A program made the translations under genes and the position numbers. Shown here piece by piece: positions 14,597-42,100 of a stretch of 46,626 nucleotides of DNA. The notes beneath the pieces are model-generated. The model made no database searches. It was given only the letters and a program-made list of their open reading frames with translations, and had not been told where the DNA came from. Origin of the DNA: a virus; the IMG/VR virus record IMGVR_UViG_3300039452_000062, positions 1 to 46,626 of that record. One strand, given 5' to 3'. How positions within the stretch are numbered: the first letter of the stretch is position 1; the number at the start of each line of letters is the position of its first letter.

Positions 14597-16348
14597 TTAC
14601 GCTCCTTTGTTGATGTGAGTGACGCGACGGGTTGGCATTTTGAACTTGCTCATCCATGCCGAAGGGTCGCCGTAGAACATGCTGATGGAGTGACCAGCAT
14701 CGGAGCGGTTCTTGACTTCACGCAGGCCGCCACCAGAAGGAGCGCCGGGAGTGTTCGCGGCAATCATGGCATCGGCATAGATTTGCTTCTCTGCGATATC
14801 CAGCACGGCGGAGTCGCTGATATCGGTCAGCTTCGCGCCCTTCCAGCTCGGAGAATGCGATTGGAAGTCGCTCAGCAGGCGCTGGCGATAGCCGGTCAGG
14901 TCTTCGCCATCCAATGGACGCGGAGCCGACTTGCCGAAGGCGTGAGCGACGGAATCAGCGCGAGCCTGAGCGGATGCCATGGCAGCGAAATCAGCGTCGG
15001 AGCGAGCTTTTGGCAGGCGCGCTTCGATGGCCTTCAGACCAGCAGCAACGCCGTCAGCGATGGCCTTGTCAATGCGGGCGGCGTCAGCTTTAGCCTTTTC
15101 CTCTTCGGAGTCGGCGGCGACTTTCTTGGCCTTGGTTTCTTCCTCTTCTTCGGCCTTTTTCTTGGCCTCTTCTTCGGCATCTGCCTTAGCCTTCATGAGG
15201 CCATCATAAGCGTCAGCTTTCGCTTTCAGCTCTGCCAATTCGGCATCGGCCTTAGCCTTTTCCTCTGCCTTTTTCTCTTCTTCCGTCATTTTCAGTGCCT
15301 CACTGGTTGAATTCAAAACGCCCTTTGGGTTGCCGCCCTTATCCCACACGCCATATTCGCAGACTGCTAAATGATCGAGAAGGAAGGGACGGCCCTCAAT
15401 TAATAGCTTTTCACCTGTATCTAGTGTTACCTCACTATTCCCGTCAGTCTCTCTAAATACAACCGTTGGTGAAGTGGATAGCGGTCTTTCTGGGTCAGAC
15501 ATAATCTGAATTGCCACATCGTCGTAAATCTTAGCGACGCCCCAGACTTCATCACCCTGTATATAGGGCAAGAGAATAGCACCAATTGTTCGTTTGCGGA
15601 ATTCTTCGCTGTCGAGCCGATCTTCTGGCGGATGTACCCAAATTACTTGCAGGCCATTACAGCGCTGCAAAAATTCGTCATTCAGATAAAGTTCTGGTGG
15701 GCGGTAGACATATTCATCATGCGCGCTGCGGTAAGCCGTGCCGGTTCCAGTGATGCGCAATGCGAACAGGGACATGTTCGCCCAGCGCTGCGGACTGGTC
15801 AGTTCGCAGGATGCAATCATGCGAGCTATGTCCAATTCGGTCATTTTCGAGACGTCGATTTGGTCGAGGGCATTGCCATCCAAGATAAGTTTTGTTCCGG
15901 GATGCAGTGGTTCCGGATATTCATCTGGGGCAGCCCAAATGAATTCAGTATTCTCGTCGTTTAGGACCGGGGCGAATTCTTGGCAGTTTTTGCCAAAAAG
16001 AGTGAATTGGCAATAACCATTATCCGTGAAGGCGATATTGCGGATAGCTCCGGTGGTGGAATATCCTGCCTCTTCCAGCACTTCGCGCCGCGCTGCCTCT
16101 TCCGCCCCCTCCTCCGGCTCTATGTGGCCGCCAGGGAATGCCCAGTGACCTGCATAGTCGCCACCGTCGCCGCGCTTCATGAGCAGCACTTTGCCGCCAG
16201 CCATGAAAGCAATCCCAGCGGCCTGAATGCGCTTTGAGGAATCACCTACAAATTCTTTTCCTACGTTTTGCGGAACGCCGCCATAGCCGCCCGGAGTATG
16301 GGCGGCGGCTTGCATTAATCGTTCTTGAGCTGGGCTAGTGGCTGGCAT
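14597..16348 (-). CDS. Nudix hydrolase domain fused to DUF2213-like prohead scaffold/protease-type protein
   Basis: Perfect Nudix box GHIEPEEGAEEAARREVLEEAGY (residues ~74-96). The middle region (..LLIEGRPFLLDHLAVCEYGVWDKGG..) resembles the phage DUF2213 family. A KAEEKAKADAELAELKAKADA... coiled coil follows. Confidence 0.8.
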   Translation of the reverse strand: MPATSPAQERLMQAAAHTPGGYGGVPQNVGKEFVGDSSKRIQAAGIAFMAGGKVLLMKRGDGGDYAGHWAFPGGHIEPEEGAEEAARREVLEEAGYSTTGAIRNIAFTDNGYCQFTLFGKNCQEFAPVLNDENTEFIWAAPDEYPEPLHPGTKLILDGNALDQIDVSKMTELDIARMIASCELTSPQRWANMSLFALRITGTGTAYRSAHDEYVYRPPELYLNDEFLQRCNGLQVIWVHPPEDRLDSEEFRKRTIGAILLPYIQGDEVWGVAKIYDDVAIQIMSDPERPLSTSPTVVFRETDGNSEVTLDTGEKLLIEGRPFLLDHLAVCEYGVWDKGGNPKGVLNSTSEALKMTEEEKKAEEKAKADAELAELKAKADAYDGLMKAKADAEEEAKKKAEEEEETKAKKVAADSEEEKAKADAARIDKAIADGVAAGLKAIEARLPKARSDADFAAMASAQARADSVAHAFGKSAPRPLDGEDLTGYRQRLLSDFQSHSPSWKGAKLTDISDSAVLDIAEKQIYADAMIAANTPGAPSGGGLREVKNRSDAGHSISMFYGDPSAWMSKFKMPTRRVTHINKGA

Positions 16349-17487: not shown

Positions 17488-18906
17488 TTATAGATTTTCT
17501 GGCTTTGGCTCGGCCATCTCTGGCTGCGCTGGCGGCTCATACGCGGCCAGCGCATCATAATCAAGGTTGAGCGGCACAGTAAACATGCGCTTCATCTCGT
17601 TGATATTGTCAGCCGCCCAGATCAGCACACGGGCGCGGTTCTCGGGATCCATTTGAGGGGCCATTACTTCCACGATGCTCACAACCGTTTTGAGCTTCGT
17701 TTCATCCACCTTGACCAGTTCCGACTCTGGCTCAATCAGCAGCGACGGCCAAATCGCAGTGAAAGCGTTTTTCCAGCTCATGAAGGCGGTCATGTAATCC
17801 ATGCTTCCATATTCGTCTGGATACTTCGCCTGGATGGTCTTGTAGAATTCTTTGTTCCATGCGCGGTACATCACAATATTGTCGAGGAACTGATACAGTG
17901 GGCGCATTTCCTCGCGGATTGTTTGAATGTACTGAGCGACGTTTTTAGCGTCCTCGGTGCCTTCGCCAAAGCCTTCCGCAAAGGTTTCGTTATTCAGCAT
18001 GCTGGCGGGCATATCGGCAGCGGCCGCGCAGTTCTCCAGTACATTCTTGCGCGCCGCAGTCAGCGCGATTTCGCTATTTTTCAGGTCAAGGGTTTCAATC
18101 TTGTCTTCGTGGCCGATGGTTAGGACATTGCCAGTCTTGCCGCGCTGAAGCAGCGTACGCTTGAAGCCCGATACCTTTGCCATCATGTTGTCCACAATGG
18201 ACCCGGCTTGCTTCATCATGGCGATTAGCAGGCCGCCCTTCTGGACCACCATGTCATCCGTCACCATCGACTGAATATAGGTCTTCAGCGGGAACAGAGC
18301 GCGCTGATAGACAGAGCGACCAACGAAACCAAAGGCGGAAGATGTGTAGCTGATGTAAATCGGCTCCTCATTCATCACCGTCACGCTGCGCGAGCGGTGG
18401 TAGGCCTCGCCAGAAACCGCAATGCCGCTGTGCTTTTGGAAATCTGGGGAGTTTGGATTTTGGCTCGTCACCAAGCTACCAGCTGTGTTCAGCGGATCAA
18501 ACACGCTGAAAAACATCTCCAGCGATGCAAAGTCTTTGGGGTCAATGATGTCGCTAGGCTTCTTCCCGACAGCCCCATAGGCCAGCGAGCAGATGCCATA
18601 AACGCGAGACTGGCTCATGGTGCTGAAAATCAGACGATCAGCTCCGATGGCTTCCCATTCCTCATTGAAGGCCTTTTTCACGTCATCTTCCGGCGAGCCA
18701 GGAATGGAAATCTCGCGCTGCTGGCTTTGGGCCTTGCTGACCGGCGCATCCGCCATTTTCTTGCCAAGCGGATGATAGAGATAGATTTGCTTGCATAGCT
18801 CATAGCCAGGGGCGCTGCCAGGTTGGATTCCGTCAGCCTCAAGCATCTTCTGAAGCGACGTGCCAAGCACTGAACCGTTGACATCGATACTGGCGTTTTC
18901 GCTCAT
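17488..18906 (-). CDS. portal protein (DUF1073-type)
   Basis: 472-aa ORF immediately after terL (stop and start adjacent). Size, order and acidic C-terminus are typical of portals. Confidence 0.8.
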   Translation of the reverse strand: MSENASIDVNGSVLGTSLQKMLEADGIQPGSAPGYELCKQIYLYHPLGKKMADAPVSKAQSQQREISIPGSPEDDVKKAFNEEWEAIGADRLIFSTMSQSRVYGICSLAYGAVGKKPSDIIDPKDFASLEMFFSVFDPLNTAGSLVTSQNPNSPDFQKHSGIAVSGEAYHRSRSVTVMNEEPIYISYTSSAFGFVGRSVYQRALFPLKTYIQSMVTDDMVVQKGGLLIAMMKQAGSIVDNMMAKVSGFKRTLLQRGKTGNVLTIGHEDKIETLDLKNSEIALTAARKNVLENCAAAADMPASMLNNETFAEGFGEGTEDAKNVAQYIQTIREEMRPLYQFLDNIVMYRAWNKEFYKTIQAKYPDEYGSMDYMTAFMSWKNAFTAIWPSLLIEPESELVKVDETKLKTVVSIVEVMAPQMDPENRARVLIWAADNINEMKRMFTVPLNLDYDALAAYEPPAQPEMAEPKPENL

Positions 18907-20182
18907 TTAGTAACCCTCGTTATTGCCCAGACCAATTGCGATTCCGTAAGTAAAGGTGTCCAGCAAGTCATCAGCGCGCTTCGCCGCGTCCTTATCTCCG
19001 ATCCTGAACCCCGTCACCTGTGTCATGAGATGGTTTCTTGTCTGGCCTTTAAAGGTGGTCACTTTATCATAGGCACGCTGGGATATCTTGATCTCGCCTC
19101 GGTAGAGATAGCCGGAAACGCTGATGGCGCGCTCATCCTTACCAACCGCAGTCAGTTTGCTGTCGATTGCAGTGGCAGGAAGGCCGCGCCGCGCCGCTTG
19201 CTGCAATAGGATGGTGCCACTAGCCTTGTCCTCAATAAAAGTGCCAGCAGAGCCGTATGTAGCCTTGCATATGCGTGCCATCATTTCCAGATTTTCAAGC
19301 ACGGTGGGGAGCCATGTTTCCAGCAAAGCGCCCTCAATCTGGACAATATCCCAATCGAGAATCACAAGCGGATGGCCGAAGTGCTTTGAGCGCGCCCAGT
19401 AAGTTACAGCGGTGCCGTCATGCTCCTGCCCCGCCTTTACCGCGCTGTCAATCGTGGCATAGACATAATCGACGTTTTCAGGCCAGATAATAGGCTGCCC
19501 ATCCACCAGCAGCTTATCAGCGCTGAAGAATGCCACGCCAGACCAATCAACGAACTCCGCAAGGAATTCCTGACGGAAGACTAACGGGTGATTTCCCTTG
19601 CGCTCCTTCTCCAGTTCATCCAGCGGCACATATGGATTGTTTGCAGTGGGCGCGTGATGCTGCGTGAATCCCAACTCAGCATCATTGCAGGCCTGGAAAA
19701 AGAAGTTCTCGGGGTCGTTCCCGTTTGGCGTAGAGTAGACCCATGCGCTGCCCTTGGTCGTGAGCATCGTGGGCTTGATTGCCTTATCCCAGATGTCGCG
19801 CATGTTCTTTTTCGTGAATGCGGCTTCATCAATATGGACTTCGTGATACTCGCGGCCTCGACCTGCCAGATCATTGTCGTTAAGCGTCCAGAAGTCAATC
19901 TGTCCGCCAGTCGTCACCAGCATGACGCCTTCAGAGCGGTTGAAGGTATCGCGAATTGGGCGCAGAATTCCTTTCAGCTCGCGCCAAGGCTCCGCACCTT
20001 GTCGGTACTCGGGGGTAAAGATGCCGATTTTCTTTTTCTTCACACAACGGTCGGCGGCCATTGTGACCATGAACTTAGTCTTGCCGAAATCGACGGCCAC
20101 ACCGGACCGCATTGTATCGGCCCCGATTCATGAAGATGTCAATTTGCCCTTCGTGCAAATCCGGTAGCGTGATAGTTGGCAT
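18907..20182 (-). CDS. terL: terminase large subunit, reading frame broken near the Walker A codons
   Basis: Track ORF 18907..20112 lacks an N-terminus. An upstream frame (ATG 20182, SD GAGAGGG) reads MPTITLPDLHEGQIDIFMNRGRYNAVRCGRRFRQD-stop. Removing one T of the TTT at 20087-20089 gives ..VRCGRRFGKTKFMV.. (P-loop). Confidence 0.8.
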
Positions 20183-20235
20183 GTTCCCTCTCTGTTGCGA
20201 AATCCTAACACGCTCAGAAATTTCTCAAAATGTGC

Positions 20236-20319
20236 TTTACCGCATGTGATTCTTTATGTATTATCTCTACATGGACGCAGCGCACTGGGCGCGGCGATGG
20301 ATGAGAGGAAGAAATCATG
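20236..20319 (+). promoter_or_regulatory. sigma70-like promoter (TTTACC-N17-TATTAT) plus conserved leader, copy A
   Basis: -35 at 20236-20241 and -10 at 20259-20264. The 68 nt at 20252-20319 match 37054-37121 with 2 mismatches, including the SD GAGAGGAAG and the ATG. Confidence 0.5.
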
Positions 20320-20541
20320 GAAATCAGCGCATCGTATAGCATACAGCGAGGAACCGATAAATGCCAAAAAGGCGTCATGTTTGTTTTTACTGACGGCAGC
20401 GCTATGGAGCGTTTCGTAGGCGGAAAAGAACTTTTCTATACCAAAGCTTCGATCCGTGACCGCCGCACTTTGAACCCAAAACAAAGCGCTAAGCGTATCG
20501 AGGAAATGAAAGCCGCCGCCGCAAAACGTTTCGCCGCCTAA
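20317..20541 (+). CDS. hypothetical protein (74 aa), first ORF of cassette A
   Basis: ATG preceded by AGAGGA at 7 nt. It lies downstream of the conserved promoter/leader. Confidence 0.55.
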   Translation: MEISASYSIQRGTDKCQKGVMFVFTDGSAMERFVGGKELFYTKASIRDRRTLNPKQSAKRIEEMKAAAAKRFAA

Positions 20542-20590
20542 CCCACCCGCGCCCTTCGTGGGCGCTTAACTGAAAGGATTGGATCATGGA
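20541..20590 (+). repeat. conserved intergenic linker 2, copy A (GC hairpin + SD)
   Basis: acccacccgcgcccttcgtgggcgcttaactgaaaggattggatcatgga is nearly identical to 37361-37410. Hairpin GCGCCC-ttcgt-GGGCGC lies at 20549-20565. Confidence 0.7.
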
Positions 20591-20717
20591 ACTTCTCACC
20601 AACATGGCCCCGATGCTGGTCTACAACCTGCTCGACGATGGCTTTGGCAATCTGGTCATCGTGCGCGCAAACAGCTGGGCCGCTGCCTACTACCACGTGC
20701 ATGGCCGCATGATCTGA
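20586..20717 (+). CDS. hypothetical small protein (43 aa)
   Basis: ATG 20586 with AAAGGA 7 nt upstream. Product is MELLTNMAPMLVYNLLDDGFGNLVIVRANSWAAAYYHVHGRMI. It is below the ORF-track size cut-off. Confidence 0.4.
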   Translation: MELLTNMAPMLVYNLLDDGFGNLVIVRANSWAAAYYHVHGRMI

Positions 20718-20718
20718 T

Positions 20719-20775
20719 CCGCCACCCACAGCACCACCCATCGCCGCGCATGACGCGGCTTTGGGGCTGAGAGGG
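20719..20775 (+). repeat. conserved intergenic linker 3, copy A (hairpin GCCGCG-catga-CGCGGC + TTTGG)
   Basis: Matches 37596-37652 almost exactly and 38146-38193 partially. The hairpin is at 20743-20759. Confidence 0.7.
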
Positions 20776-20809
20776 TTTCTCTCATCAAACAACATAGGAG
20801 AATCAAACC

Positions 20810-21103
20810 ATGAGCAAAGAACACCCATTCGTAGGCCTTTACGTGATCGCTCGCTGCTATTCTGCTGGCGTGCATGCTGGTGAGGTTGCCAGCGTGGATG
20901 GCGAGAATGTCATCCTGAAAAATTCGCGCCACCTGTGGAACTGGACGGCCAAGGATGGCGTAGCCCTGTCCGGCGTGGCCCAGCATGGGCTGAAGAAGGG
21001 CGGCAGCAAGCTGGACGTGATTAATCCTGAAATCTACCTGACCGGCGTCTGCGAGCTGATCCCTGTTGCAGACGGTGTGCGCGAGCAAATCCATGGTTAC
21101 TAA
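20810..21103 (+). CDS. conserved small phage protein, unknown function
   Basis: 97 aa with SD AGGAG 8 nt upstream. The pattern VIARCYSAGVHAGEV...VILKNSRHLWNW...GVALSGVAQHG recalls a widespread small phage protein family whose name I cannot give with certainty. Confidence 0.65.
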   Translation: MSKEHPFVGLYVIARCYSAGVHAGEVASVDGENVILKNSRHLWNWTAKDGVALSGVAQHGLKKGGSKLDVINPEIYLTGVCELIPVADGVREQIHGY

Positions 21104-21389
21104 AAAAATCTGGCGCTCCGGCTACGGCTACGGCTACGGCTACGGCGACGGCTCCGGCGACGGCTCCGGCTACGGCTCCGGCTACGGCGACGGCTACGGC
21201 TCCGGCTCCGGCTACGGCTACGGCTACGGCTACGGCTACGGCGACGGCTACGGCTACGGCTCCGGCTCCGGCTACGGCTACGGCTACGGCTACGGCGACG
21301 GCTACGGCTACGGCTCCGGCTACGGCGACGGCTACGGCTCCGGCTCCGGCTCCGGCTACGGCTACGGCTCCGGCTACGGCTACGGCTAA
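21093..21389 (+). CDS. Gly-Tyr-rich low-complexity protein (98 aa): MVTKKIWRS + (Gly-X)44-Gly
   Basis: ATG 21093 lies inside the last 11 nt of the upstream gene. X = 26 Tyr, 12 Ser, 6 Asp. A hairpin with T-tract follows the stop. Coding status is unproven because the tract is open in several frames. Confidence 0.45.
   Translation: MVTKKIWRSGYGYGYGYGDGSGDGSGYGSGYGDGYGSGSGYGYGYGYGYGDGYGYGSGSGYGYGYGYGDGYGYGSGYGDGYGSGSGSGYGYGSGYGYG
21117..21386. repeat. perfect tandem hexanucleotide array, 45 units of GGC-[T/G][A/C]C
   Basis: Only GGCTAC, GGCTCC and GGCGAC occur, uninterrupted over 270 nt. Confidence 0.95.
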
Positions 21390-21412
21390 TCACATCAAAT
21401 TACCTCACCCAT

Positions 21413-21438
21413 AGCCCTGCTAGACAGGGCTTTTATAT
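21413..21438 (+). terminator. intrinsic terminator after the Gly-Tyr ORF
   Basis: AGCCCTG-ctaga-CAGGGCT followed by TTTTATATT. Confidence 0.65.
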
Positions 21439-21470
21439 TGAAACCCTACCTCAACCCGAAAGGAATCGAA

Positions 21471-21956
21471 ATGGCTACTTGGATCGAAGACGCAAACGGA
21501 AACAAATGCAGCGTGGAATATTTTGGCAGCGAAGAGGCTGCGCGTGCGGCGCTGGAATCATTGAAAAATTGCAAATATTGCATTAACTGCTCCGGCTGCT
21601 CCGACTGCTCCGGCTGCTCCTATGTTCGCAATGCCAAGCCAGTTGAAAGCACTTCTGGTGCACCAAAAGTTCCGATCATTGAAGATATTCACAAGAAAGT
21701 CTATGCCGCCGCGACTGCAACTTCAGAATCGCTGGATATGACGACTTGGCACACCTGCGAGATCACACACTGCCGCGCTGGCTGGGTTGTGAATCTGGCT
21801 GGCGAAGAAGGTAAGGCGCTGGAGAACTTTCACAATACTGAGCTGGCCGCGATGCTGATCTACAAGGCAAGCGGCTACGAAATCAGCCCAGTTCAGTTAT
21901 ACCTCAACAATGCCGATGCTTTGCGCGATATGAAGGCTCTGGCCGAAGCTGAATAA
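21471..21956 (+). CDS. Cys-repeat (CxxC)n protein with conserved C-terminal domain, unknown function
   Basis: 161 aa from ATG 21471 (SD AAAGGAA). It contains NCKYCINCSGCSDCSGCS, i.e. six Cys at 3-residue spacing encoded by TGCTCCGGC/TGCTCCGAC 9-mers. The C-terminus includes ..WHTCEITHCRAGWVVNLAGEEG... Confidence 0.65.
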   Translation: MATWIEDANGNKCSVEYFGSEEAARAALESLKNCKYCINCSGCSDCSGCSYVRNAKPVESTSGAPKVPIIEDIHKKVYAAATATSESLDMTTWHTCEITHCRAGWVVNLAGEEGKALENFHNTELAAMLIYKASGYEISPVQLYLNNADALRDMKALAEAE

Positions 21957-21964
21957 GCATCCAC

Positions 21965-21999
21965 GTCCTGCGCCGGTAAAACGCAGGACTTTGGTTGCT
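21965..21999 (+). terminator. intrinsic terminator at the convergent junction
   Basis: GTCCTGCG-9 nt-CGCAGGAC followed by TTTGGTTGCTT. Confidence 0.55.
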
Positions 22000-22005
22000 T
22001 CCCAA

Positions 22006-22191
22006 TCAGGCCACACGTACCGCACTGATAGTGCCATAGGCGGATACCGTGCCCGCGCTGAACGTGGCTTGCGCCACCAGATTCAGCGTGGTATCGGCAC
22101 TCACCGACAAAGTTGCCTGCGACGCCTGACTCACCGTATCGGAAAGCGTGGTGGTGGATAGCGGCAGGAGAAAATATAAGTTACGTCTCAT
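22006..22191 (-). CDS. 61-aa ORF, or frame-shifted C-terminal extension of the SGNH protein
   Basis: ATG 22191 overlaps the SGNH gene end by 11 nt. The ORF is in the +1 frame relative to that gene, across a T5 run at 22191-22195. The beta-rich Ser/Thr/Ala sequence resembles the preceding C-terminus. Confidence 0.3.
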   Translation of the reverse strand: MRRNLYFLLPLSTTTLSDTVSQASQATLSVSADTTLNLVAQATFSAGTVSAYGTISAVRVA

Positions 22192-23743
22192 TTTTAATGA
22201 TCCCCTGACGACCAAATTTCACAGTTAATGCTGTACCAGCCCCATCGAAAGAGCAAGAAAATGACAGTCGAATGTGTCCAGCGGTGCTATGCACAATAGC
22301 TTGCGGCATCTTGATTGGGATGCTGAAATCGTCCGTCCCGAAGATGGCCGAAGACAAGCCACTTCCGGTGAAGACGGTGGAATAGCTATTGATCGACACA
22401 TTATCGTCAATAACCAGAGAAATCTGAAACTGTTTCAGCTTTGAACCGCTCACCCCCGCAAGGGATATGGCACAACGTCCCGTCAACAAGTCATTGACGT
22501 TGGCTTTGCCACTGGTTGAGATATTCTCACCATAAATGGCTAAAGCATCCCCAGAAGCTCCAGCAGTGAATACGCAAACTTGGTCATAACCGAAACCATC
22601 AGCACGTAATGTCGGCGCGCCGGTGCAGGTCGCAGTCGGGCCAGTCGCCACCACTTGCATGTTGGCGCAGACGGTGAGACCGGTGATGGTGGCCGTACTG
22701 CCGCTGGTCGAGCCGCCTGCCGTCGATGCCCAACCGACACTTGTTAGATTGTTGGAGGTACTGGAGTACGCGAAGTTATCTGCATTGGACGAAGGTAGGC
22801 GCGACGGCACCGCAGGGAAAAGTTTTTGCAGTACAGGGCCAAGCGCCGGTGCAATAGCTTGGCGGCATGACCATGGACTTGGATGCAGACCGTCCTTTGT
22901 GTAGTTAGCCTTTGCCTGACCTGCTGGCGAACTTAATGGATCAACATAAAGTGAATATGCGTCCACGTATTCCATACCTGGAGTTACCGCACAGTATGAC
23001 TCCATCAACTTGTTAAATTCCAACTGCTTTACAACATTGGCAGCGCTAAAGATTGCACCCCCGCTGCCAGAGTTCATAAACGGCACTTCCGAGATATGAA
23101 CAATAGGAATACCAGCCGCTTGCAGTACCGCGTAGTTAGCTAAGGTATCGGCGTACATCTGGGCCAGCGTACGAGTATTCAAGTCGTTGACACCAAGCGG
23201 GCCGGCGATATGCAAGTCGGGTTTTTGCGCCACTACGACGGACATATTCGCCAATTGATCTGCAATCTTTGCCCCCGAGAATGCGACATTCTTGATGTTA
23301 CGCAAAGCAGCATTGCAATACAGCGCGTTGGTATATTCAAACCATGCCGCGAAACCGGTGTATTGCTCATTGTAGATTCCGCTTGAACGCCCATTGACGC
23401 TTCCCCATGATGCGGTAGCATCAGGGCGAGCATCAGGATATGTAAAGGTATTCGTACCAGTGCGCGTGATGGTGAACCAGCCGGTGAAGTCGTTCGTGCC
23501 GCCAGCGTCAGCCAAGTTCTCTATGTAGATTTGATTATTCGTGACAAGATTATGCGCTTGCCCGAGATTGGCAGTGACCACACCAGAAGCCCGGACAAAG
23601 GTAGGTGATGTCGTACCCATCGCATATTCTTGTAAGCGAGTACGAGAATCCCCGCTCATGGTAATACGCCTGCTACGATTAGCGATCAAATTTGCTTGAC
23701 GGTTGCCGTATGGCGCGCCCGGGGGGGTATTAGGTGCTGTCAT
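22181..23743 (-). CDS. SGNH/GDSL-family hydrolase with beta-rich C-terminal domain
   Basis: 520 aa. Block I is ITMSGDSRT, block III GPLGVNDL and block V KDGLHPS (DxxH). Confidence 0.8.
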   Translation of the reverse strand: MTAPNTPPGAPYGNRQANLIANRSRRITMSGDSRTRLQEYAMGTTSPTFVRASGVVTANLGQAHNLVTNNQIYIENLADAGGTNDFTGWFTITRTGTNTFTYPDARPDATASWGSVNGRSSGIYNEQYTGFAAWFEYTNALYCNAALRNIKNVAFSGAKIADQLANMSVVVAQKPDLHIAGPLGVNDLNTRTLAQMYADTLANYAVLQAAGIPIVHISEVPFMNSGSGGAIFSAANVVKQLEFNKLMESYCAVTPGMEYVDAYSLYVDPLSSPAGQAKANYTKDGLHPSPWSCRQAIAPALGPVLQKLFPAVPSRLPSSNADNFAYSSTSNNLTSVGWASTAGGSTSGSTATITGLTVCANMQVVATGPTATCTGAPTLRADGFGYDQVCVFTAGASGDALAIYGENISTSGKANVNDLLTGRCAISLAGVSGSKLKQFQISLVIDDNVSINSYSTVFTGSGLSSAIFGTDDFSIPIKMPQAIVHSTAGHIRLSFSCSFDGAGTALTVKFGRQGIIKNET

Positions 23744-23744
23744 T

Positions 23745-24407
23745 TTAGTTTGCCGCGTAGCAGATGAAGTCGGTGATCGAAAGGTTACCGTTTGCCGTCA
23801 TGATGTCGAGCTGATTCAGATTGGTTATAGCCAACCCCGGTAACGGCTGCCCGGGGTTTAGTTGCCAGCCAGTACCAGTTCCGTCATTCTTGTTTGTCAG
23901 AGTTCCGTGATAACCGCACATAATCACTCCGGCATTAGTTGTGCTGGCGATGAGGGTTGCGCCGTTGACTAATGCCACGCTTGGCAACTGGGTTGGCGTC
24001 GAACCCGCGACTACCTGCCCAATGTTTGGTACGGCCTGTGGGTTGGTCTTGGTCAGCAGTCTCTTGAGTAGAGCAATCAGGCTGAACGTGCCGGTGTCCG
24101 ACGTCGCAGCTGCATCAGCTTTAGCACCTTGCGTCACATTAGCACCATCCGCGACGGTGGTAGCCACATTGCCGCCAACAGCATATGGACGCGGATTACT
24201 TCCAACAGTATAGGCCGTGCCTGCTGGGACCAGATAGGCAGTAAATACTGGCGGCGTCGCGCCATTGTCGCGATAAACGAATTGCGCGCCGGTGTCGTCG
24301 GTATAGAGCAAATCTTGAACGCCCGTGCCGCCCCCGCCTCCACCGCTCACCACACGAACCGGAATCGCGCCAGAATCAAGCGTTTGATTATTGTTAAAGT
24401 CAGACAT
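23745..24407 (-). CDS. hypothetical protein (220 aa), Gly-run near N-terminus
   Basis: ORF packed between terS and the SGNH gene. No motif was recognised. Confidence 0.6.
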   Translation of the reverse strand: MSDFNNNQTLDSGAIPVRVVSGGGGGGTGVQDLLYTDDTGAQFVYRDNGATPPVFTAYLVPAGTAYTVGSNPRPYAVGGNVATTVADGANVTQGAKADAAATSDTGTFSLIALLKRLLTKTNPQAVPNIGQVVAGSTPTQLPSVALVNGATLIASTTNAGVIMCGYHGTLTNKNDGTGTGWQLNPGQPLPGLAITNLNQLDIMTANGNLSITDFICYAAN

Positions 24408-24415
24408 TTTAATCC

Positions 24416-24880
24416 TTAGTCATCTGGTAAACCGCCCTCGATTTTGATCGTCCCGCTGTCACCTTCATCGGCTTTGACATCGCCCCATTTCTTTGGGCGG
24501 ACCTTCCCAGCGTACCAACGTATCGCATCGTACTGGAGGCGGCGATGCTGGATCATATCACCCCGTTTAACCTTGACAATAGTTCCATCTGGGCCAGTAG
24601 TGGTTTCCGTCTCCTCCCCAAACTCGGGCGTGCTAATGATTTGCAATGCCTTTTCAACAAGCGTATCGGCACGTAATTCACATGCGCGCGCGTATTGTTT
24701 TTGGAAAAGGGGAAACTCTTCTAGCCACTTCATCACAGTACTGATATTCGGCATATTGTCACTTCGACAAATAGCGCGCAAACTTTCCCCCTCCGTGATC
24801 CGTTCAAGAATCTCGTCTGCTGTTTCTGTGTCGAATGGCTGTCGTTCCCTTCGGCGCTTTTTTGGCTCTGCTTCAGTCAT
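24416..24880 (-). CDS. terS: terminase small subunit
   Basis: 154 aa. ..ILERITEGESLRAICRSDNMPNISTVMKWL..FQKQYARACELRADTLVEKAL...RRLQYDAIRWYAGKVRPKKWGD matches the HTH-type small terminase pattern known from many proteobacterial phages. Confidence 0.7.
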   Translation of the reverse strand: MTEAEPKKRRRERQPFDTETADEILERITEGESLRAICRSDNMPNISTVMKWLEEFPLFQKQYARACELRADTLVEKALQIISTPEFGEETETTTGPDGTIVKVKRGDMIQHRRLQYDAIRWYAGKVRPKKWGDVKADEGDSGTIKIEGGLPDD

Positions 24881-25631: not shown

Positions 25632-25829
25632 TTATTGGCAACTATTCAAACTTTCACCCTCAGCCATTTTCATGGCCTCGTATGCAAATTTTATCTGCGC
25701 ATGATTGAGGGTCTTGTCGCCCTGGCTGTGACGAAAAACGATCCGCTTAGCCCATGCCTTGAAGTCGCGCTGGCCGCTAACGTATTGCGGATATCGCGCT
25801 TCTGCCTCAGATCGGATGGCGTAACTCAT
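25632..25829 (-). CDS. hypothetical protein (65 aa)
   Basis: ATGA coupling to the upstream loader gene. Confidence 0.5.
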   Translation of the reverse strand: MSYAIRSEAEARYPQYVSGQRDFKAWAKRIVFRHSQGDKTLNHAQIKFAYEAMKMAEGESLNSCQ

Positions 25830-26587
25830 GCCTCGCCTCTACGGAATGATGGCCAGTCAAAATTACAAACGAATGAATTTTCATGCAACCTATCAGTTAC
25901 CCTGCTGCCAATATGCTTGTCAAGATTATCAAATGCCTGATTCGTGATAACGACAACAGGGCGCTCTTGGTTGTATCTCCGATTGATAACTTCGGTAAGC
26001 AAAAGATTGGCATTTTCCTTGTCTGGCTTTACATCAATTTCGTCCAACACTAAAACTCCATATTGGACGAACTTCAAAATTTCCGATTCCTCACTGCGTC
26101 CATCTTGCGAGCCATACGACGACTGGATTTCGCTAATCATCTGCTTTGCGGTGCAGTAACGAGCGGAAATTGAATTGTTGTTTATCAGCGATTCAGCGAA
26201 CTCGCAAGCCATCAATGTTTTTCCTGTACCGACGTCGCCAATCATCATCAAAACTGCCCAGCCGCCATTTTCGATGATGAAATCTCGATAGGATTTCACC
26301 ATCAACCGAGCTGATTTTTGGGCGGGCGTGTTGGCAACAAATTTCTGATCTCGGAATTTTCTCGGGATATCGGCTATCCGATGCAAAGTTTCGCTACGGT
26401 CGCGCATCCAAGCTGCATGCTCCCCTTCTTTGTGTCGCACCTCACTGCATGCAGGGCAAAACCACGATGCGTTGATTTTTTTCGGAAACTTAACCACACT
26501 TTCACCATGGACATCGCAAGTACCTTTTTCCTCGCGCCACAATCCATTTGCGATAGCTTCTTTCACAACATCAACAGGTGATTCCAT
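25826..26587 (-). CDS. DnaC/IstB-like AAA+ helicase loader with N-terminal zinc ribbon
   Basis: Walker A is GDVGTGKT and Walker B VLVLDEID. The N-terminal Cys pairs are CDVHG...CPAC. Confidence 0.8.
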   Translation of the reverse strand: MESPVDVVKEAIANGLWREEKGTCDVHGESVVKFPKKINASWFCPACSEVRHKEGEHAAWMRDRSETLHRIADIPRKFRDQKFVANTPAQKSARLMVKSYRDFIIENGGWAVLMMIGDVGTGKTLMACEFAESLINNNSISARYCTAKQMISEIQSSYGSQDGRSEESEILKFVQYGVLVLDEIDVKPDKENANLLLTEVINRRYNQERPVVVITNQAFDNLDKHIGSRVTDRLHENSFVCNFDWPSFRRGEA

Positions 26588-26596: not shown

Positions 26597-27538
26597 CTAA
26601 AAGTTAATTTCACCATCGGGAATTTCGGTTATCCCATGCTTTTTCATGCTCTCGTCCATCCGACGCTGGTCAAGGCTGCGATCAACACCACTCAAGTCAA
26701 ACTTCGTATTGTTTTGCAATGATGCCGCGACCGGCGTTCGCTCGTTCATGACGAAATTCCGCCAAGTAGCCATCCAATCCAGTTTTCGACCTTTAGCCCC
26801 TGGAACTGCTCGCCAGTAGTCGTAAAACTTCCTTGCCACCTCGGATGGCCTCAGATCAGGGCGGTTTGCTTTGCAAAACGCCGTTCCCTCTTCGCCTGGA
26901 TGCCAATTCTCAGGAAGGCGGCATCCTCGGCCAGCTTTGTTGGCGCTCTGCTCTTCTGGTTCTTGGTTTACGGTTACTGGTTTACGGTTACTGGTTATAG
27001 CCGTCTCAGGTTCAGTACGTTCTTGTTTGTCACGCGTGACAGATGTGTGACTGTCTTGTTTGTCTTTGTTTTGTGCTATATTCACACATTCATCTAATAT
27101 GTTTTGCAGCTCAGACATAGGCGTGTCGTACTTCGGAATTACATCGAATTCTTCCCGGAGTTGCGTGAATATCGCGCTGCGGCGCTGGCGATATAGCTGC
27201 TGCCGCAACCTCTCGTTCTCCCGGCGCTCATCCTGATCCCTCCCAGCCTCGCGATATGCCGTCAAGGCGGCGTCAATTCGATGGTGGTGGTATCCATCTA
27301 CCTCCTGAGTGAATTTCGCCTTCAGGACGCGCATAACGGCTTGGCGGTCCTTGTCGATCACCTCGCCGTCTTGGTCGATGGCGCCTATCATGTGGCAAAT
27401 CTCATCCACCTCCAGCGGAAGCGGTAATTCGCTGTCGTAATAGGCGTCCATCATATCGCGATATAGCCAGCGCATCAGGCGCGTGAAATGAATCGTTCCT
27501 GAGCGCATGTCGCCTATGTGGTATTGGTAGCTATGCAT
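26597..27538 (-). CDS. replication initiator / replisome organiser (DUF1376-type N-terminus)
   Basis: The N-terminus YHIGDMRSGTIHFTRLMRWLYRDMMDAYYDSELPLP and the C-terminus ..KFYDYWRAVPGAKGRKLDWMATWRNFV are typical of this family. It lies upstream of the DnaC-like gene. Confidence 0.75.
   Translation of the reverse strand: MHSYQYHIGDMRSGTIHFTRLMRWLYRDMMDAYYDSELPLPLEVDEICHMIGAIDQDGEVIDKDRQAVMRVLKAKFTQEVDGYHHHRIDAALTAYREAGRDQDERRENERLRQQLYRQRRSAIFTQLREEFDVIPKYDTPMSELQNILDECVNIAQNKDKQDSHTSVTRDKQERTEPETAITSNRKPVTVNQEPEEQSANKAGRGCRLPENWHPGEEGTAFCKANRPDLRPSEVARKFYDYWRAVPGAKGRKLDWMATWRNFVMNERTPVAASLQNNTKFDLSGVDRSLDQRRMDESMKKHGITEIPDGEINF
26957..27064. repeat. iteron-like repeats and palindrome inside the replication gene (candidate origin)
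   Basis: TGGTTTACGGTTAC occurs twice in tandem (26964-26991) within six YGGTTNN heptamers. A 14-bp palindrome TGTCACGCGTGACA lies at 27028-27041. TCTTGTTTGTC occurs twice (27021, 27054). An AT-rich stretch follows. Confidence 0.4.
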
Positions 27539-30421: not shown

Positions 30422-31282
30422 TCATTTCAGCTTTTCAGCCAGGATCGGGGCAACGTCCAGATCGATCAGGGAATCATACATTTCGCCACTGATCGTATCG
30501 CGGACCACTTCAAGAATGTAATTAAGCGCAATTTCAGCTGCTTGGATATCACGCTTGGTAATGCCGGTCGGCGCTTTTTTTGGCGCGACTTTGTTGATGG
30601 ATTTCGCCGTCACTTTTGACTTGCCGGATTCCTTCGCAATCTTTTCAGAAGCGGTCAAAATCTCAGTGGCTTTGTCACCATGCTCGCGGACCACTTTTAC
30701 CGCCTCGGTCAGCGAAACAACGCCAGAAGAAACCATGCTTTGCACAGCAGCCGGGGCCTTGCCGAAGTCGAGATAAAAGGCAATCGTGGCAGGGCTGGTT
30801 TTCAGCTTGTCGGCGATGAATTCATTGCTGCGCCCGAAGTTTTTGGCGCGTTTAATCCACCATGCCATTTGCTCGGGCTTCATCACTTTATTGCGGTTGC
30901 TTTCCGCAATGATGTAGTGCTCGTCCTCGTCGTTAGCGTTCTCGACTTGGCGAATATCGATGAGGATTTTGCCGCTGCGGCGGTCGCTCAGATCGACGCC
31001 AGCAGCAACAGCTTTGCGCGTTTGGGTAATGCGACGATGGCCGTCAAGTACCCATACGCCGCCATCAGCACGGACACTCACCAGAATTGCAGGAAGACGT
31101 GACCAGCCATATTCCTTGATATGCTCATAGAGCTGGCGGTCTTCTTCTTCATTCTCTTCATTGCGGCCAGGAGGGTTGAAATCAGGCTTGAAGTGAATGT
31201 TGTGCAGTTCGATGCGATTGCCATCCTTGCGCGTGATGGTCTTCTCTTCCTGCATCTTACGAATGCTATTTTCCGCAGCCAT
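30422..31282 (-). CDS. ParB N-terminal (ParB/Srx nuclease-like) domain protein
   Basis: 286 aa. Motif ..LPAILVSVRADGGVWVLDGHRRITQTRKAV.. (DGHRR). Confidence 0.75.
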   Translation of the reverse strand: MAAENSIRKMQEEKTITRKDGNRIELHNIHFKPDFNPPGRNEENEEEDRQLYEHIKEYGWSRLPAILVSVRADGGVWVLDGHRRITQTRKAVAAGVDLSDRRSGKILIDIRQVENANDEDEHYIIAESNRNKVMKPEQMAWWIKRAKNFGRSNEFIADKLKTSPATIAFYLDFGKAPAAVQSMVSSGVVSLTEAVKVVREHGDKATEILTASEKIAKESGKSKVTAKSINKVAPKKAPTGITKRDIQAAEIALNYILEVVRDTISGEMYDSLIDLDVAPILAEKLK

Positions 31283-31374: not shown

Positions 31375-31626
31375 CTACAAAATGAGACAATCATCAATGC
31401 ACATTTGTCGGGCATCTGTTTTGACGTAGATTGAGTGCTTGCCATTGATCTTTTGATCGCAGTCGGGCAGGCCGCGAGATATGGCTATGGCGCAAGCTTC
31501 ATGGCATGTAGCCACTGGCGAAGTGCTGAACATGCAGCCGCTGCAGCTATGGTTTGAGTTGGCCTCACGGACGGTGAAAGAGAGGCCTGCTGCGGATAGA
31601 TAGATTGGCTTAGGACGACGACCCAC
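31375..31626 (-). CDS. Cys-rich hypothetical protein (83 aa, GTG start)
   Basis: GTG 31626 with GGAG 7 nt upstream. It overlaps the ninG end by 17 nt. Confidence 0.4.
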   Translation of the reverse strand: MGRRPKPIYLSAAGLSFTVREANSNHSCSGCMFSTSPVATCHEACAIAISRGLPDCDQKINGKHSIYVKTDARQMCIDDCLIL

Positions 31627-32302
31627 GGCGTTTCTCCAAGCGTTTAATTTTTCGCCGCATGATTATCGAAAACCTGATTAAATAATCATGGTCGTAAACA
31701 CGACTACGGTCAGCGGTTTTGAGCCATTCGACACGATCATCCCCGATCTTTAAGCGCAACCTCTTCTCATACTCTGCTATGTTCCCGGATTTAAATAGGT
31801 TGCACTGGGCGCAACCCTTATGTATGTTCAGAAGATTAAAGCGAAGATTTGAATTGCTACCAACGCTCTTAAAGTGCGACGCATGCCATGCGCCGTCATA
31901 ATGCGCAGGCATAGGGCATGAAATACAATTCTCGTCCTTATCACGCAAAACAACATAGCGATTGACCAAAACTTGCAGGGCAGCTAGCCGCTCCCTAATC
32001 GACATACCTTGTTCTTTTCGTCGCTTTGCCTCCGCTCTTTCGGATTTTTCCTTGGCGGCCTTTTGTTTCGCTAACTTTTCAATGGCTAGTACAGTTCCGC
32101 AATCAACACTGCACCAATCTTTCCAAGGCTGCGATGGGTCCGGAATATAAGATGTGCGACATGCGCGATTCTTGCACTTCTTGGGGCGCGGCCCTTTAGG
32201 TGGCTTCGGAATGCTGATGAATGGCGTCCGCTTGAGTGGTGTTGTTCTTTTCAAGTTCAATCGATTCCTCTTTTTCTCTTCGTGCGATGTCGTCGCGCAC
32301 AT
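31610..32302 (-). CDS. ninG: NinG-family recombination protein (start uncertain: ATG 32302 or TTG 32260)
   Basis: Aligns by eye with lambda NinG: KKCKNRAC...WCSVDCG..., CISC...WHASHF...LRFNLLNIHKGCAQCNLFKSGN. Confidence 0.8.
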   Translation of the reverse strand: MCATTSHEEKKRNRLNLKRTTPLKRTPFISIPKPPKGPRPKKCKNRACRTSYIPDPSQPWKDWCSVDCGTVLAIEKLAKQKAAKEKSERAEAKRRKEQGMSIRERLAALQVLVNRYVVLRDKDENCISCPMPAHYDGAWHASHFKSVGSNSNLRFNLLNIHKGCAQCNLFKSGNIAEYEKRLRLKIGDDRVEWLKTADRSRVYDHDYLIRFSIIMRRKIKRLEKRRGSSS

Positions 32303-32610
32303 CGGCCTCCAGCTCACCATAGCGCCCGCAGCGCACGCGAACCTCATATTCTGGATTGTGGATGCAGTAGGGAGACTTGATGCGATGCGTGAAGTGATAC
32401 CCCCTCGCAAGTGCATTGGTCTTTGCGATACTGGCGCGCCTTATCCAGATAGAAGACAGGCCCAATCACCGGCTTCTTATCTGATCCAGGCGGCGGAATA
32501 AACTCAGCATGGCCGCAATGTTTGCATTTCGGTGCGCGCTTGTACCACTCATACTTATGCTTGAGCGTGTTCCTGCCGCGACAACATTTGCAGCGATAGG
32601 CCCAGCTCAT
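32196..32610 (-). CDS. zinc-finger protein, reading frame broken at a G5 (plus-strand C5) run
   Basis: Track ORFs 32344..32610 and 32196..32465 overlap. Deleting one G at 32400-32404 joins ..RKDQCTCEG to YHFTHRIKSPYCIHNPEYEV.. The downstream ORF has no independent start. Confidence 0.55.
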
Positions 32611-33679: not shown

Positions 33680-33906
33680 GTTTTGAATGCCCACACATCG
33701 CCGCAGTCTATGACGGTTCAGCAGGGGCTAAGCTGCTGACAATCCACTAATGGCGGGCCAGCCATATCATAGACGAGGCCAAGCGCCCATGAGCGCTATA
33801 AATCTCCTCGCTGTCACGGCGCATGGAAAGTGAAGACTATCGCGGCGCTGCCAAGCTGCGATAGGCAGCCGGTGGAAACCCGGTCCTTTCTTTCATGGAG
33901 TCCACA

Positions 33907-34695
33907 ATGTCAAATGAATTGGAGTTGGTCGACGACCGACAGGGCGCAGCTTTGCCCGTCGTTCAGCAGAATAATCAAGTTCGTACCACTGGCAGCACCC
34001 CCGCTGATCTGGTGCGCTATGCAATGGAATCCGGTGCTGATCTGGATCGCCTGGAGCGCCTGATGCAGATGCAGGTTGAATGGGAAAAGCGCGAAGCTGA
34101 GAAGGCCTATCATGCAGCGGTTGCAGCCTTCAAAGAAAATGCGCCGACGATCCGCAAGAACAAAACTGCGGACTTCGCCACGCAAAAGGGCCGCACCACC
34201 TACGATTTTGCTACGCTAGGGAATGTGGTTTCGATGATCGTTCCAGAACTGGCAAAGCACGGCCTCTCGCATCGCTGGGTTCCTGACCAGAATGGTGCGC
34301 TGATCGGCATCACCTGCATTCTCACACACCAGCAAGGCCACAGCGAAAGCATCCGCCTTGAGGCCTCCAAGGACGAGAGCGGCGGCAAGAACTCAATACA
34401 GGCTATCGGCTCCGCAAAGAGCTACTTGGAGCGCTACACGCTTCTGGCTATCACTGGTCTTGCTGTCGAAGATAGCGAGGATGACGATGGGAAGTCTTTC
34501 TCGAAGGACGATCTTGACACCTCTCTTGCTGATGAATGGATCGCAAAGGTGAAGGCTGCCCCCACCGATCAAGATGTAATCGCAGTATGGAACGCAGGCG
34601 CGGCCAAGATGGAAGACCGCCCGCATGACTTCAAAGAATTCCAAAAGGCTGTTGCCAGCCGACGCTACGAACTCAACCAGAACAAAGGGCAGTGA
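33907..34695 (+). CDS. erf: Erf-family single-strand annealing protein (alternative start 33895)
   Basis: ..IQAIGSAKSYLERYTLLAITGLAVEDSEDDDG.. parallels P22 Erf ..GATSSYARKYCLNGLFGIDDAKDAD.. ATG 33907 has GGAG 6 nt upstream. Confidence 0.75.
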   Translation: MSNELELVDDRQGAALPVVQQNNQVRTTGSTPADLVRYAMESGADLDRLERLMQMQVEWEKREAEKAYHAAVAAFKENAPTIRKNKTADFATQKGRTTYDFATLGNVVSMIVPELAKHGLSHRWVPDQNGALIGITCILTHQQGHSESIRLEASKDESGGKNSIQAIGSAKSYLERYTLLAITGLAVEDSEDDDGKSFSKDDLDTSLADEWIAKVKAAPTDQDVIAVWNAGAAKMEDRPHDFKEFQKAVASRRYELNQNKGQ

Positions 34696-34696
34696 A

Positions 34697-36627: not shown

Positions 36628-37051
36628 GCGAGTCTTCATCCTGGCTCACGAAGGCGCACGGGACAACGCGGCGCAGTTCTGCCGTGAAGCTCCGGCTGGC
36701 TGGAAAGTCACGTTTTCACCAGCCACGCGCAACAACGAGCAAAACGCCAAGATGCACGCCATGATTGGCGACATATCCAAGCAAGTTCAGCATGTAGGCC
36801 GCTACTGGGCGCTGGATGACATGAAACGCATCCTTGTCGATGAGTTCGCGGAAGAAATGCGCCTTGCTGGAACACCTCTGCATCACGATGGGCGCGTTGT
36901 CCCGAGCATGGACGGGCGGCGAATTGTCCAGCTTGGCTGCCAAACGCATGAGTTCTATGTCGGCGAGGCTTCGGCTTTCATCGAATGGCTCTACATGTTG
37001 GGCGCAAACCACAATGTTCGTTGGAGCGAAAAATTTCTTTACAGGGAATAA
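36620..37051 (+). CDS. ninB: NinB (lambda Orf-family) recombination mediator
   Basis: RNNEQNAKMHAMIGDISKQVQHVGRYW aligns with lambda RSLDQNRKLWACLGDVSRQVEWHGRWL. The C-terminus ..FIEWLYMLGANHNVRWSE aligns with ..LLELIQAFGTERGVKWSDE. Confidence 0.88.
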   Translation: MDKRVFILAHEGARDNAAQFCREAPAGWKVTFSPATRNNEQNAKMHAMIGDISKQVQHVGRYWALDDMKRILVDEFAEEMRLAGTPLHHDGRVVPSMDGRRIVQLGCQTHEFYVGEASAFIEWLYMLGANHNVRWSEKFLYRE

Positions 37052-42074: not shown

Positions 42075-42100
42075 GGCCCCAGATCGGGGCTTTATTTATT
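42075..42100 (+). terminator. intrinsic terminator at the convergent junction with the lysis genes
   Basis: GCCCC-agatc-GGGGC followed by TTTATTTATT. Confidence 0.6.

Follow-up and report, generated by a model that had tools for sequence, protein, structure and literature searches.

Why does a tailed phage carry a perfect array of six-letter repeats that reads, in one frame, as glycine alternating with tyrosine, serine or aspartate, and what could the product do? The array in question lies at 21117-21386 of the viral record IMGVR_UViG_3300039452_000062, whose 46,626 nucleotides (nt) are the whole stretch of DNA analysed here (the window). Our best reading, to which we assign a probability of roughly 0.55, is that it encodes a tyrosine-rich, low-complexity protein that evolves by slippage, is translationally coupled to an upstream gene of the family DUF6948, and works in the infected cell with the DUF6948 product as an Sm-like scaffold or chaperone. 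One part of this answer we hold with high confidence, namely that the array is a real coding gene with an obligate DUF6948 partner and a slippage-variable length.

A perfect hexamer array encodes a Gly-X repeat protein

The array spans 270 nt of the plus strand and consists of exactly 45 perfect hexamers. Read in the NNC-GGC register from 21117, it holds 26 copies of TACGGC, 13 of TCCGGC and six of GACGGC, and Tandem Repeats Finder reports a period of 6 with 45.7 copies, 0% indels and a score of 415. A previous description made from the letters alone (the sequence-only reading) had listed 45 units of GGC-NNC; that array is real, and our register is a 3-nt shift of the same set. The open reading frame (ORF) containing it runs from an ATG at 21093 to a TAA at 21387-21389 (21093..21389, +) and encodes 98 amino acids (aa), which translate as MVTKKIWRS followed by (G-X)44-G. 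In the repeat part all 45 Gly codons are GGC, all 26 Tyr are TAC, all 12 Ser are TCC and all six Asp are GAC; both this translation and these counts agree with those given earlier, and the X residues rank Tyr > Ser > Asp. The product is a polypeptide of ~50-100 aa in which a short basic leader is followed by a pure Gly-X dipeptide repeat. Its ATG sits 11 nt inside the DUF6948 gene (20810-21103), in the +1 frame relative to that gene.

The sequence-only reading had also seen a nine-unit higher-order period, D-Y-Y-S-S-Y-Y-Y-Y. Autocorrelation of the X string at lag 9 is 0.60 versus 0.42 in shuffles (p = 0.011, uncorrected for the 15 lags examined), which at most hints at such a period. As a competing frame we considered an antisense Arg-Ser ORF (21100-21393) and rejected it, since TAT-based tracts give another antisense peptide or stops and its start is not conserved.

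The repeat ORF follows DUF6948 in many tailed phages

The gene overlapped by the repeat ORF encodes a 97-aa protein (20810..21103, +) that matches DUF6948 (Pfam PF22253) with an E-value of 1.3e-24 and 86.5 bits, where the cutoff is 27. Pfam assigns no function to the family, the literature searched does not mention it, and 1804 clusters at 50% identity match its profile at E <= 1e-3. When DUF6948 homologues are collected without reference to the tract, 26 of 27 have a (Gly-X)n ORF directly after them; by source these are 13/13 viral contigs, 9/10 distinct GenBank phages and 4/4 contigs of metagenome-assembled genomes (MAGs).

The association also holds in the other direction. A codon-neutral DNA scan of viral contigs for (GGN-TAY)x4 found at least 120 stretches, and the matches listed, together with the window and loci fetched earlier, yielded 104 tract ORFs. 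Seventy-three have a DUF6948 gene no more than 250 nt upstream. The other 31 comprise six in tandem arrays behind DUF6948 (within 2 kb), one fused, ten at truncated loci and 14 with none; overall, 80 of the 94 evaluable tract ORFs stand behind a DUF6948 gene. With the same pair in so many genomes, the expansion is not a peculiarity of the window phage; the sequence-only reading had overlooked the DUF6948 module.

The 13 viral-contig relatives (68-81% identity in DUF6948) show what is kept. In every one, an ATG overlaps the DUF6948 stop and opens a leader of the form M-[AVIT]-[TS]-[NKD]-K-[TIV]-[WF]-[RT]-x, followed in frame by (G-[YSD])n with 19 to ~58 units whose order cannot be aligned between genomes. 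Most carry an AAGGA or AGGAG motif ~8 nt upstream of this ATG, and in L008 and L013 the ATG persists although the overlapped His codon has changed to Asp. An absent or out-of-frame tract in close relatives would have spoken against the plus frame proposed from the letters; instead, the in-frame tract, the overlapping ATG (usually with its Shine-Dalgarno sequence) and the leader recur in 13/13, and we take the frame to be functional.

In the 66 pairs that we analysed, most tract-ORF starts overlap the DUF6948 stop by 1-19 nt, and the tract lies in the -1 frame relative to DUF6948 in 45, in +1 in 20 and in frame 0 in one. Overlapping starts combined with mixed frame relations point to translational coupling that gives two separate polypeptides, and we rejected a programmed ribosomal frameshift on the same mixed frames. 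Judged by these comparisons of sequence, DUF6948 and the repeat ORF, in that order, make up a near-obligate module of two genes that is widespread in tailed phages.

Most loci lie in the early recombination/replication region of their genomes, where genes for Erf, a YqaJ-type exonuclease and SSB recur near the module. The window is an exception, with the pair in an own-promoter-type cassette between the genes for the small (TerS) and large (TerL) terminase subunits; the module is near terminase or tail genes also in the Pectobacterium phages and in Ralstonia NK-7. Lytic-looking and temperate genomes carry it alike.

The GenBank phages with the pair are Ralstonia NK-7, Pectobacterium Ymer and Sabo, Iodobacter PhiPLPE, Vibrio IKEMa6-1, Chlorobiaceae CV-1-33 and three uncultured phages. 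The carriers from Ralstonia, Pectobacterium and Iodobacter are cultured; Vibrio and Chlorobiaceae are host names on GenBank records. Copies are already deposited, either as "hypothetical protein" or "fibroin heavy chain-like protein" (NK-7) or with no annotation (PhiPLPE). The repeat member is often left unannotated because it resembles a junk repeat, as in the RefSeq record of PhiPLPE (NC_011142), which omits a 78-aa (Gly-X)n ORF and terminator at ~46045-46280 (1174-1409 of our locus L139).

Several loci vary the arrangement. At L050 (687-2971) five tandem, mutually overlapping (Gly-X)n ORFs, each with the same 13-aa leader and 14-aa tail, come after a single DUF6948 gene. At L009 (~3800-4010) the leader is duplicated: a mini-ORF (MASKHIFRDGYG-stop) covers the DUF6948 stop and a full copy with a strong Shine-Dalgarno sequence comes after it. 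Degenerate Gly-X tracts follow DUF6948 in two overlapping frames (G-[TPE] and G-[DYHS]) at L149 (~1760-2270; MW202898), which may be a decaying or frame-shifted copy. Finally, the database protein P0345, in which DUF6948 continues into the tract in a Leu-Arg/Pro frame, is a gene-caller misreading.

Codon usage points to the peptide as the selected level

We compiled codon statistics for 88 non-redundant tracts of at least 20 units, taken among the matches listed from loci L001-L136 and the window. Minority codons within a tract amount to 2.6% at Gly and 0.8% at the third base of X, against 51% of X codons that depart from the major choice at positions 1-2. The major Gly codon is GGC in 73 tracts, GGG in six, GGT in six and GGA in three. 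X codons come from the family TAC/TCC/GAC/AAC, with third base C, in 63 tracts and from TAT/TCT/GAT/AAT, with third base T, in 25; the residues themselves are Y (1455), D (747), S (651) and N (267). The encoded G-[YSDN] composition is constant across tracts built on all-GGC, all-GGG, all-GGT or all-GGA. Since codon sets differ between tracts and the peptide composition stays the same, the protein frame is what is conserved. The G-X frame also reaches a stop within three codons of the tract's end in 40/67 tract-terminal ORFs, compared to 11/62 and 15/62 for the other two sense frames. The peptide is therefore the level on which selection acts, with frame and G/Y/S/D(N) composition kept and unit order not.

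Roles for the nucleic acid itself fared poorly. The mRNA across the tract folds worse than dinucleotide shuffles (z = +3.3), on which ground we rejected a structured RNA, and the occurrence of all-GGG, all-GGT and all-GGA tracts excludes a universal DNA motif. We looked for a second copy of the tract, which could serve as a template repeat, and found none in the window; a diversity-generating retroelement target was rejected for lack of it, and no reverse transcriptase was matched in PHROGs among the subset of window ORFs scanned. An attenuation-type leader peptide was discarded because the downstream hairpin begins 24 nt past the stop, the tract is far too long and the downstream genes are not conserved. 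A function only at the nucleic-acid level, one option left by the sequence-only reading, is unlikely, given that different codon sets specify the same peptide and that the RNA is less structured than its shuffles.

Three regularities of codon choice deserve record. GGC dominates its 73 tracts even though 21 of these belong to AT-rich loci in which it makes up only 31% of background Gly codons. The third base of X, unlike the Gly codon, tracks genome GC. The X residues Y, S, D, N, F, C and H are exactly the one-step neighbours of TAY at positions 1 and 2, with Ala essentially absent.

Genomes with identical flanks differ in unit number

Two other assemblies of the window phage (L144 and L145; ENA ERZ27313792 and NCBI GCA_019237525.1 contig JAFAGY010000089.1) are 100% identical to the window for 2.8 kb upstream and 2.3 kb downstream of the tract. 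Their product is 52 aa with 21 X units, compared to 98 aa with 44 X units in the window. The difference is one in-frame block of 138 nt (23 units) between two copies of a 47-nt perfect direct repeat, which sequence comparison places inside the tract at 21167..21213 (left) and 21305..21351 (right), both on the plus strand. The two assemblies differ from each other by a single substitution in 5.3 kb, a change from GAC to TAC inside the tract. In a second phage, three samples with identical flanks carry 29 (L146), 23 (L147) and 24 (L148) X units. All observed differences are multiples of 6 nt; the assemblies compared are short-read ones that differ, so the unit number of the window is itself uncertain.

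The sequence-only reading had foreseen a slippage-driven, length-variable locus and suggested that related genomes be compared. The near-uniform silent sites and the unit numbers of 44 versus 21 and of 29, 24 and 23 in genomes with identical flanks both fit that expectation. Slippage or unequal recombination between hexamer blocks, that is, concerted evolution, best explains this pattern: either process would account for the use of single codons as well as for the differences in unit number.

DUF6948 models as an Sm-like barrel and the repeat protein as disordered

AlphaFold2 predicts the window DUF6948 protein with high confidence (mean predicted local distance difference test, pLDDT, of 91.9) as a five-stranded small β-barrel with an inserted helix; the strands are E11-16, 20-30, 33-44, 67-77 and 81-85. 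The Sm fold itself is a strongly bent barrel of five strands, as a rule with a helix ahead of the first. In a Foldseek search of the PDB with this model, the best 50 matches were all Sm/LSm-type chains or an LSm domain, with probabilities of 0.82-1.0 (mostly 1.0), E-values of 0.01-0.06 and template modelling (TM) scores of 0.45-0.70. BFVD, a collection of predicted viral protein structures, returned uncharacterised phage proteins only. Sequence and profile comparison of DUF6948 with the PDB gave nothing significant, and Pfam reports DUF6948 alone for the window protein, with no Sm1 or Sm2 motif and no LSM or Hfq profile. Because no Sm motif or profile is matched, the claim is limited to a predicted Sm-like small β-barrel fold and does not extend to membership of the Sm family.

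For the repeat protein, AlphaFold2 predicts no fold (mean pLDDT 35.6), consistent with intrinsic disorder. With 45 Gly, 26 Tyr, 12 Ser and six Asp in 89 residues, the repeat part belongs to the low-complexity, G/S/Y-rich class; Tyr makes up 27% of the residues of the protein, and the heptapeptide GYGYGYG occurs in it several times. Across the family, the ORF behind DUF6948 comes in three architectures: a leader with a tract only, as in the window (29 ORFs, up to ~58 units); a leader helix with a short tract and a common C-terminal domain of ~150 aa (ten loci); and an N-terminal "GAC-motif" domain with a tract. Overall, ~23 tract ORFs have a C-terminal part of at least 40 aa, and some of the loci with the ~150-aa domain hold only 6-12 units. 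Tracts are also fused to DUF7666 (P0005 and P0083), and the one such locus that we examined (L015) has no upstream DUF6948 gene. The repeat protein, the fused domains and the other cassette genes gave nothing in Pfam, PHROGs, NCBIfam and PADLOC beyond sub-threshold compositional matches (TrAA12, keratin head, serine-rich), and the cluster collection has no exact record of the repeat proteins.

The module sits in a cassette between the terminase genes

The window is a tailed-phage genome, which NCBI bins as a contig of an Alphaproteobacteria MAG; its DUF6948 protein is 100% identical to JO253_03015. A megablast of positions 19000-24000 against GenBank phages gave no match. The repeat ORF belongs to a small plus-strand cassette (20317-21956) inserted between the TerS and TerL genes. 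The cassette opens with a 74-aa ORF (20317..20541, +) that has no family match and is called as a gene also in L144 and L145, followed by a 43-aa ORF (20586..20717, +), likewise without a family match and called in L144 only, and then by DUF6948 and the repeat ORF. Upstream lies a promoter-like site, TTTACC-17-TATTAT (20236..20264, +), with 9/12 consensus positions; its position alone, between divergent units, makes it plausible. Downstream of the repeat ORF is a terminator-like hairpin, AGCCCTG-CTAGA-CAGGGCT (21413-21431), that continues into a T-run, TTTATATT (21413..21438, +). Analogous hairpins lie 3' of the repeat ORF in L002-L008, L013 and phage PhiPLPE.

The sequence-only reading had taken these two sites as a promoter and a terminator, with the repeat ORF closing the transcription unit. 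The sites exist, but promoter-like and terminator-like sites are no more numerous in the region than in shuffles. As for the closing position, the hairpin recurs in relatives, but a 161-aa ORF lies beyond it on the same strand (21471..21956, +; phrog_31265 / phrog_15341, function unknown), so the repeat ORF is not strictly the last gene of the unit. This gene is not a conserved neighbour of the module, and downstream genes vary among relatives. It has a 9-nt tandem repeat of its own (21586-21620) that encodes CSGCSDCSGCS, with five CxxC steps.

Around the cassette, ~4.2 kb (20183-24415) separate the TerS (24416-24880, -) and TerL (18907-20112, -) genes, an unusual break in a packaging module whose portal gene follows at 17488-18906 (-). 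Besides the cassette, the insert contains a 220-aa ORF and a 520-aa GDSL-lipase-like ORF (22181-23743, -). The TerL gene is split by a 1-nt frameshift at a T-run (~20085-20087) that falls inside the Walker A motif, between CGRRF and GKTKF, leaving the typical N-terminus on an upstream 35-aa ORF (20075-20182). Two other assemblies contain the same frameshift sequence, which leaves a shared error, a defective phage or recoding as explanations.

Elsewhere the window encodes a DnaC-like loader (25826-26587, -), a primosomal protein (26597-27538, -), ParB (30422-31282, -), NinG (31610-32416, -), Erf (33895-34695, +), an exonuclease (34625-35353, +), NinB (36620-37051, +), a spanin (42092-42637, -), an endolysin (42641-43180, -) and a tail fibre (45230-46474, -). 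Further short tandem repeats occur at 15123-15192 (24-nt unit), 26964-26996 (14-nt) and 44583-44637 (9-nt, AGCACCACC).

Discussion

How might the two proteins act? We propose that the Tyr-rich Gly-X polymer would be a multivalent element in which Tyr residues serve as stickers and Gly and Ser as spacers, while Asp tunes solubility. Like low-complexity domains of the FUS type or silk-like (GX)n segments, it could self-associate or bridge partners. DUF6948, translated ahead of it from one shared message, would bind the repeat protein as a scaffold or holdase, and the pair would behave like an Sm or Hfq protein with a detachable low-complexity tail, acting in the cytoplasm of the infected cell. 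Most modules are sited among genes for Erf, YqaJ-type exonuclease and SSB, which suggests that they act early and inside the cell.

Amyloid-like fibrils of the peptide GYGYGYG are reported both from in vitro work and from simulation (PMC8163036, PMC10510724), and among RNA-binding proteins [G/S]Y[G/S] motifs count as a recognised class of low-complexity sequence (PMC4822317). Acinetobacter Hfq joins an Sm core to GGFGGQ repeats (PMC11617691), and the C-terminal region of Hfq is amyloid-like (PMC12257945). Self-association on an Sm-like scaffold remains a tentative proposal whose odds we put somewhat below even, and the condensate- or aggregate-forming effector suggested in the sequence-only reading is likewise tentative. 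A stronger version, in which the module is a new and widespread phage assembly system, with a tyrosine-zipper polymer or condensate that an Sm-like ring would nucleate or cap and whose size or material state would be tuned by rapid, slippage-driven change in repeat number, strikes us as doubtful.

Several observations weigh against a slippage-evolving low-complexity protein with an Sm-like partner. The Foldseek E-values are modest (~0.01), and small β-barrels (SH3, Tudor, KOW and Sm) are mutually alike. In addition to carrying no recognisable Sm motif, the window DUF6948 protein is not basic by residue count and is missing the N-terminal extension of most homologues. The preference for GGC across lineages is left unexplained by the model. 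Length comparisons rest on short-read assemblies, in which the choice of assembly path could add or collapse units. In family members with the ~150-aa domain, a short tract between helix and domain would fit a mere flexible linker.

This last point leads to the idea that the tract does no more than tether or solubilise, as a flexible spacer or entropic bristle, with the leader docking on DUF6948 and any effector function in the optional terminal domains; tract-only ORFs would then be minimal or degenerate versions that do not self-associate. The ORFs with long C-terminal parts, including the domain shared by ten loci, fit such a role, as do the predicted disorder and the lack of constraint on number and order of units. 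Against it stand the 29 ORFs that are all tract, up to ~58 units with no other domain, and are hard to see as linkers when nothing is joined. Moreover, Tyr is the commonest X residue (1,455 in 2,913 X positions) and Ala is essentially absent, and inert linkers, rich as a rule in Gly, Ser, Pro and Thr, seldom contain aromatic residues. We regard a pure spacer as unlikely.

We think it improbable that the module is instead a toxin-antidote-like or host shut-off pair, in which an aggregating or toxic repeat protein would be held in check by DUF6948 as holdase or antidote, for use in host takeover, superinfection exclusion or the addiction of a plasmid or prophage. The layout, a small putative protector gene that overlaps another small gene downstream, recalls that of type II toxin-antitoxin loci; the pairing is near-obligate, and GY peptides are amyloidogenic (PMC8163036). 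However, no toxin, antitoxin or defence model was matched in PADLOC, Pfam or NCBIfam, known toxins are globular enzymes, and lytic-looking genomes carry the module as readily as temperate ones.

A structural or adhesive component of the virion, or a lysis-related one, has still less to recommend it. Such a protein might resemble silk, collagen or mussel glue, for example as a Tyr-cross-linked fibre or decoration protein. Gly/Tyr-rich structural proteins are common in eukaryotes, the NK-7 copy is labelled as fibroin-like in GenBank, and in the window, the Pectobacterium phages and NK-7 the module adjoins terminase or tail genes. But the pair and these structural neighbours lie on opposite strands or in different modules in the window, in the Pectobacterium phages and in those close relatives that were checked, and most loci lie among early genes. 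Tract-only ORFs also have no anchoring domain. A collagen-like (G-X-Y)n phage fibre was rejected outright, as Gly occupies every second residue here and every third in collagen.

It is very improbable that the array acts only as DNA or RNA, be it as a recombination hotspot, a packaging or regulatory site or a structured RNA, with the ORF incidental. Its extreme nucleotide uniformity, the dominance of GGC (73/88 tracts, against the 31% background of AT-rich loci) and its place between the TerS and TerL genes of the window would suit such a role, but tracts written wholly in GGG, GGT or GGA, or in TAT, TCT and GAT, retain the peptide composition and frame, and the start, Shine-Dalgarno sequence and stop are conserved. 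Nor do the unstructured RNA (z = +3.3), the lack of a template repeat in the window and the unconserved siting relative to terminase genes favour it. Last, programmed frameshifting that would fuse the repeat to DUF6948 as a covalent Gly-Tyr tail on an Sm-like core is scarcely credible: the overlapping frames, an A7 run at 21102-21108, a database protein (P0101) that joins the N-terminal half of DUF6948 to a tract and the phrog_18306 profile, which seems to hold both parts, speak for it, but the mixed frame relations leave no common slippery geometry, the tract ORF has its own ATG or GTG and Shine-Dalgarno sequence, the A-run begins within the stop codon TAA so that slippage there cannot bypass the stop, P0101 lacks the last two barrel strands, and a search of the top 150 representatives for clean fusions found only gene-calling artefacts and one truncated fusion.

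We return, then, to a coupled, Tyr-rich repeat protein that would work with an Sm-like DUF6948 partner. If the stronger version, with a ring that nucleates or caps the polymer, is correct, tailed phages encode a hypervariable intracellular organiser or anti-host device without a characterised phage counterpart. Should the repeat protein self-assemble with its partner, the pair would provide a compact bacterial-virus model of low-complexity or prion-like assembly, and a case of protein length that changes faster than the neighbouring sequence by orders of magnitude and keeps its frame. The module is carried by tailed phages of many hosts, including those in gut and soil viromes, and is unstudied; since cultured phages carry it, it is directly open to experiment. 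There is also a practical side, in that short-read metagenomes probably mis-assemble or collapse such tracts, which can also mislead gene callers, as P0345 illustrates. The sequence-only reading knew of no characterised phage protein of this kind, and none appears in Pfam, PHROGs, NCBIfam, PADLOC or the literature searched. Nothing on phages came up when papers were sought on DUF6948, DUF7666, GY-repeat strings and fibroin heavy chain with phage, and none of the literature searched describes the pairing, codon pattern, length polymorphism or function of the module.

The nearest parallels lie in cellular proteins. Among eukaryotic Sm proteins, SmD1, SmD3 and SmB carry Gly-Arg dipeptide tails, and LSm4 has a prion-like tail. 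Like them, the phage module would combine a small Sm-type β-barrel with a Gly-X or low-complexity tract that mediates higher-order assembly, with the proviso that the phage partner only models as Sm-like. Unlike them, it belongs to a phage, its tract is a separate, coupled polypeptide with Tyr, Ser or Asp at X in place of Arg, and DUF6948 has no Sm sequence motifs. The Hfq proteins of Acinetobacter and Escherichia coli likewise join an Sm core to a Gly- and aromatic-rich, repetitive region, disordered or amyloid-prone, that is needed for function (PMC11617691, PMC12257945). There the repeat is fused to the core and differs from the phage tract in unit and period, and Hfq, to which DUF6948 has no sequence similarity, works in cells as an RNA chaperone whose RNA-binding faces are defined.

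As a polymer, the repeat protein resembles the [G/S]Y[G/S] domains of FUS and hnRNP proteins and the GYGYGYG peptides in being Gly/Ser/Tyr-rich, predicted to be disordered and dense in Tyr stickers, but it is tiny and nearly all tract, its period is strictly two residues, the window protein lacks Gln and Asn, and its density of Tyr is much higher. With the silk fibroin heavy chain it shares strict Gly-X alternation over tens of units and repetitive, length-variable DNA. In silk, however, X is mainly Ala or Ser with little Tyr, whereas the phage tracts are Tyr-dominated, with Asp, Ser and Asn at the other X positions and no Ala counted, and we rejected a silk-type (GX)n protein for this reason; the phage protein has no secretion signal and would be intracellular, and the resemblance is one of composition and not of homology. 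At the DNA level, the closest likeness is to the simple-sequence contingency loci of bacteria and phages, in which the unit number of a short tandem repeat also varies between otherwise identical genomes. The phage unit of 6 nt alters protein length only, so changes in its number never switch the frame on or off.

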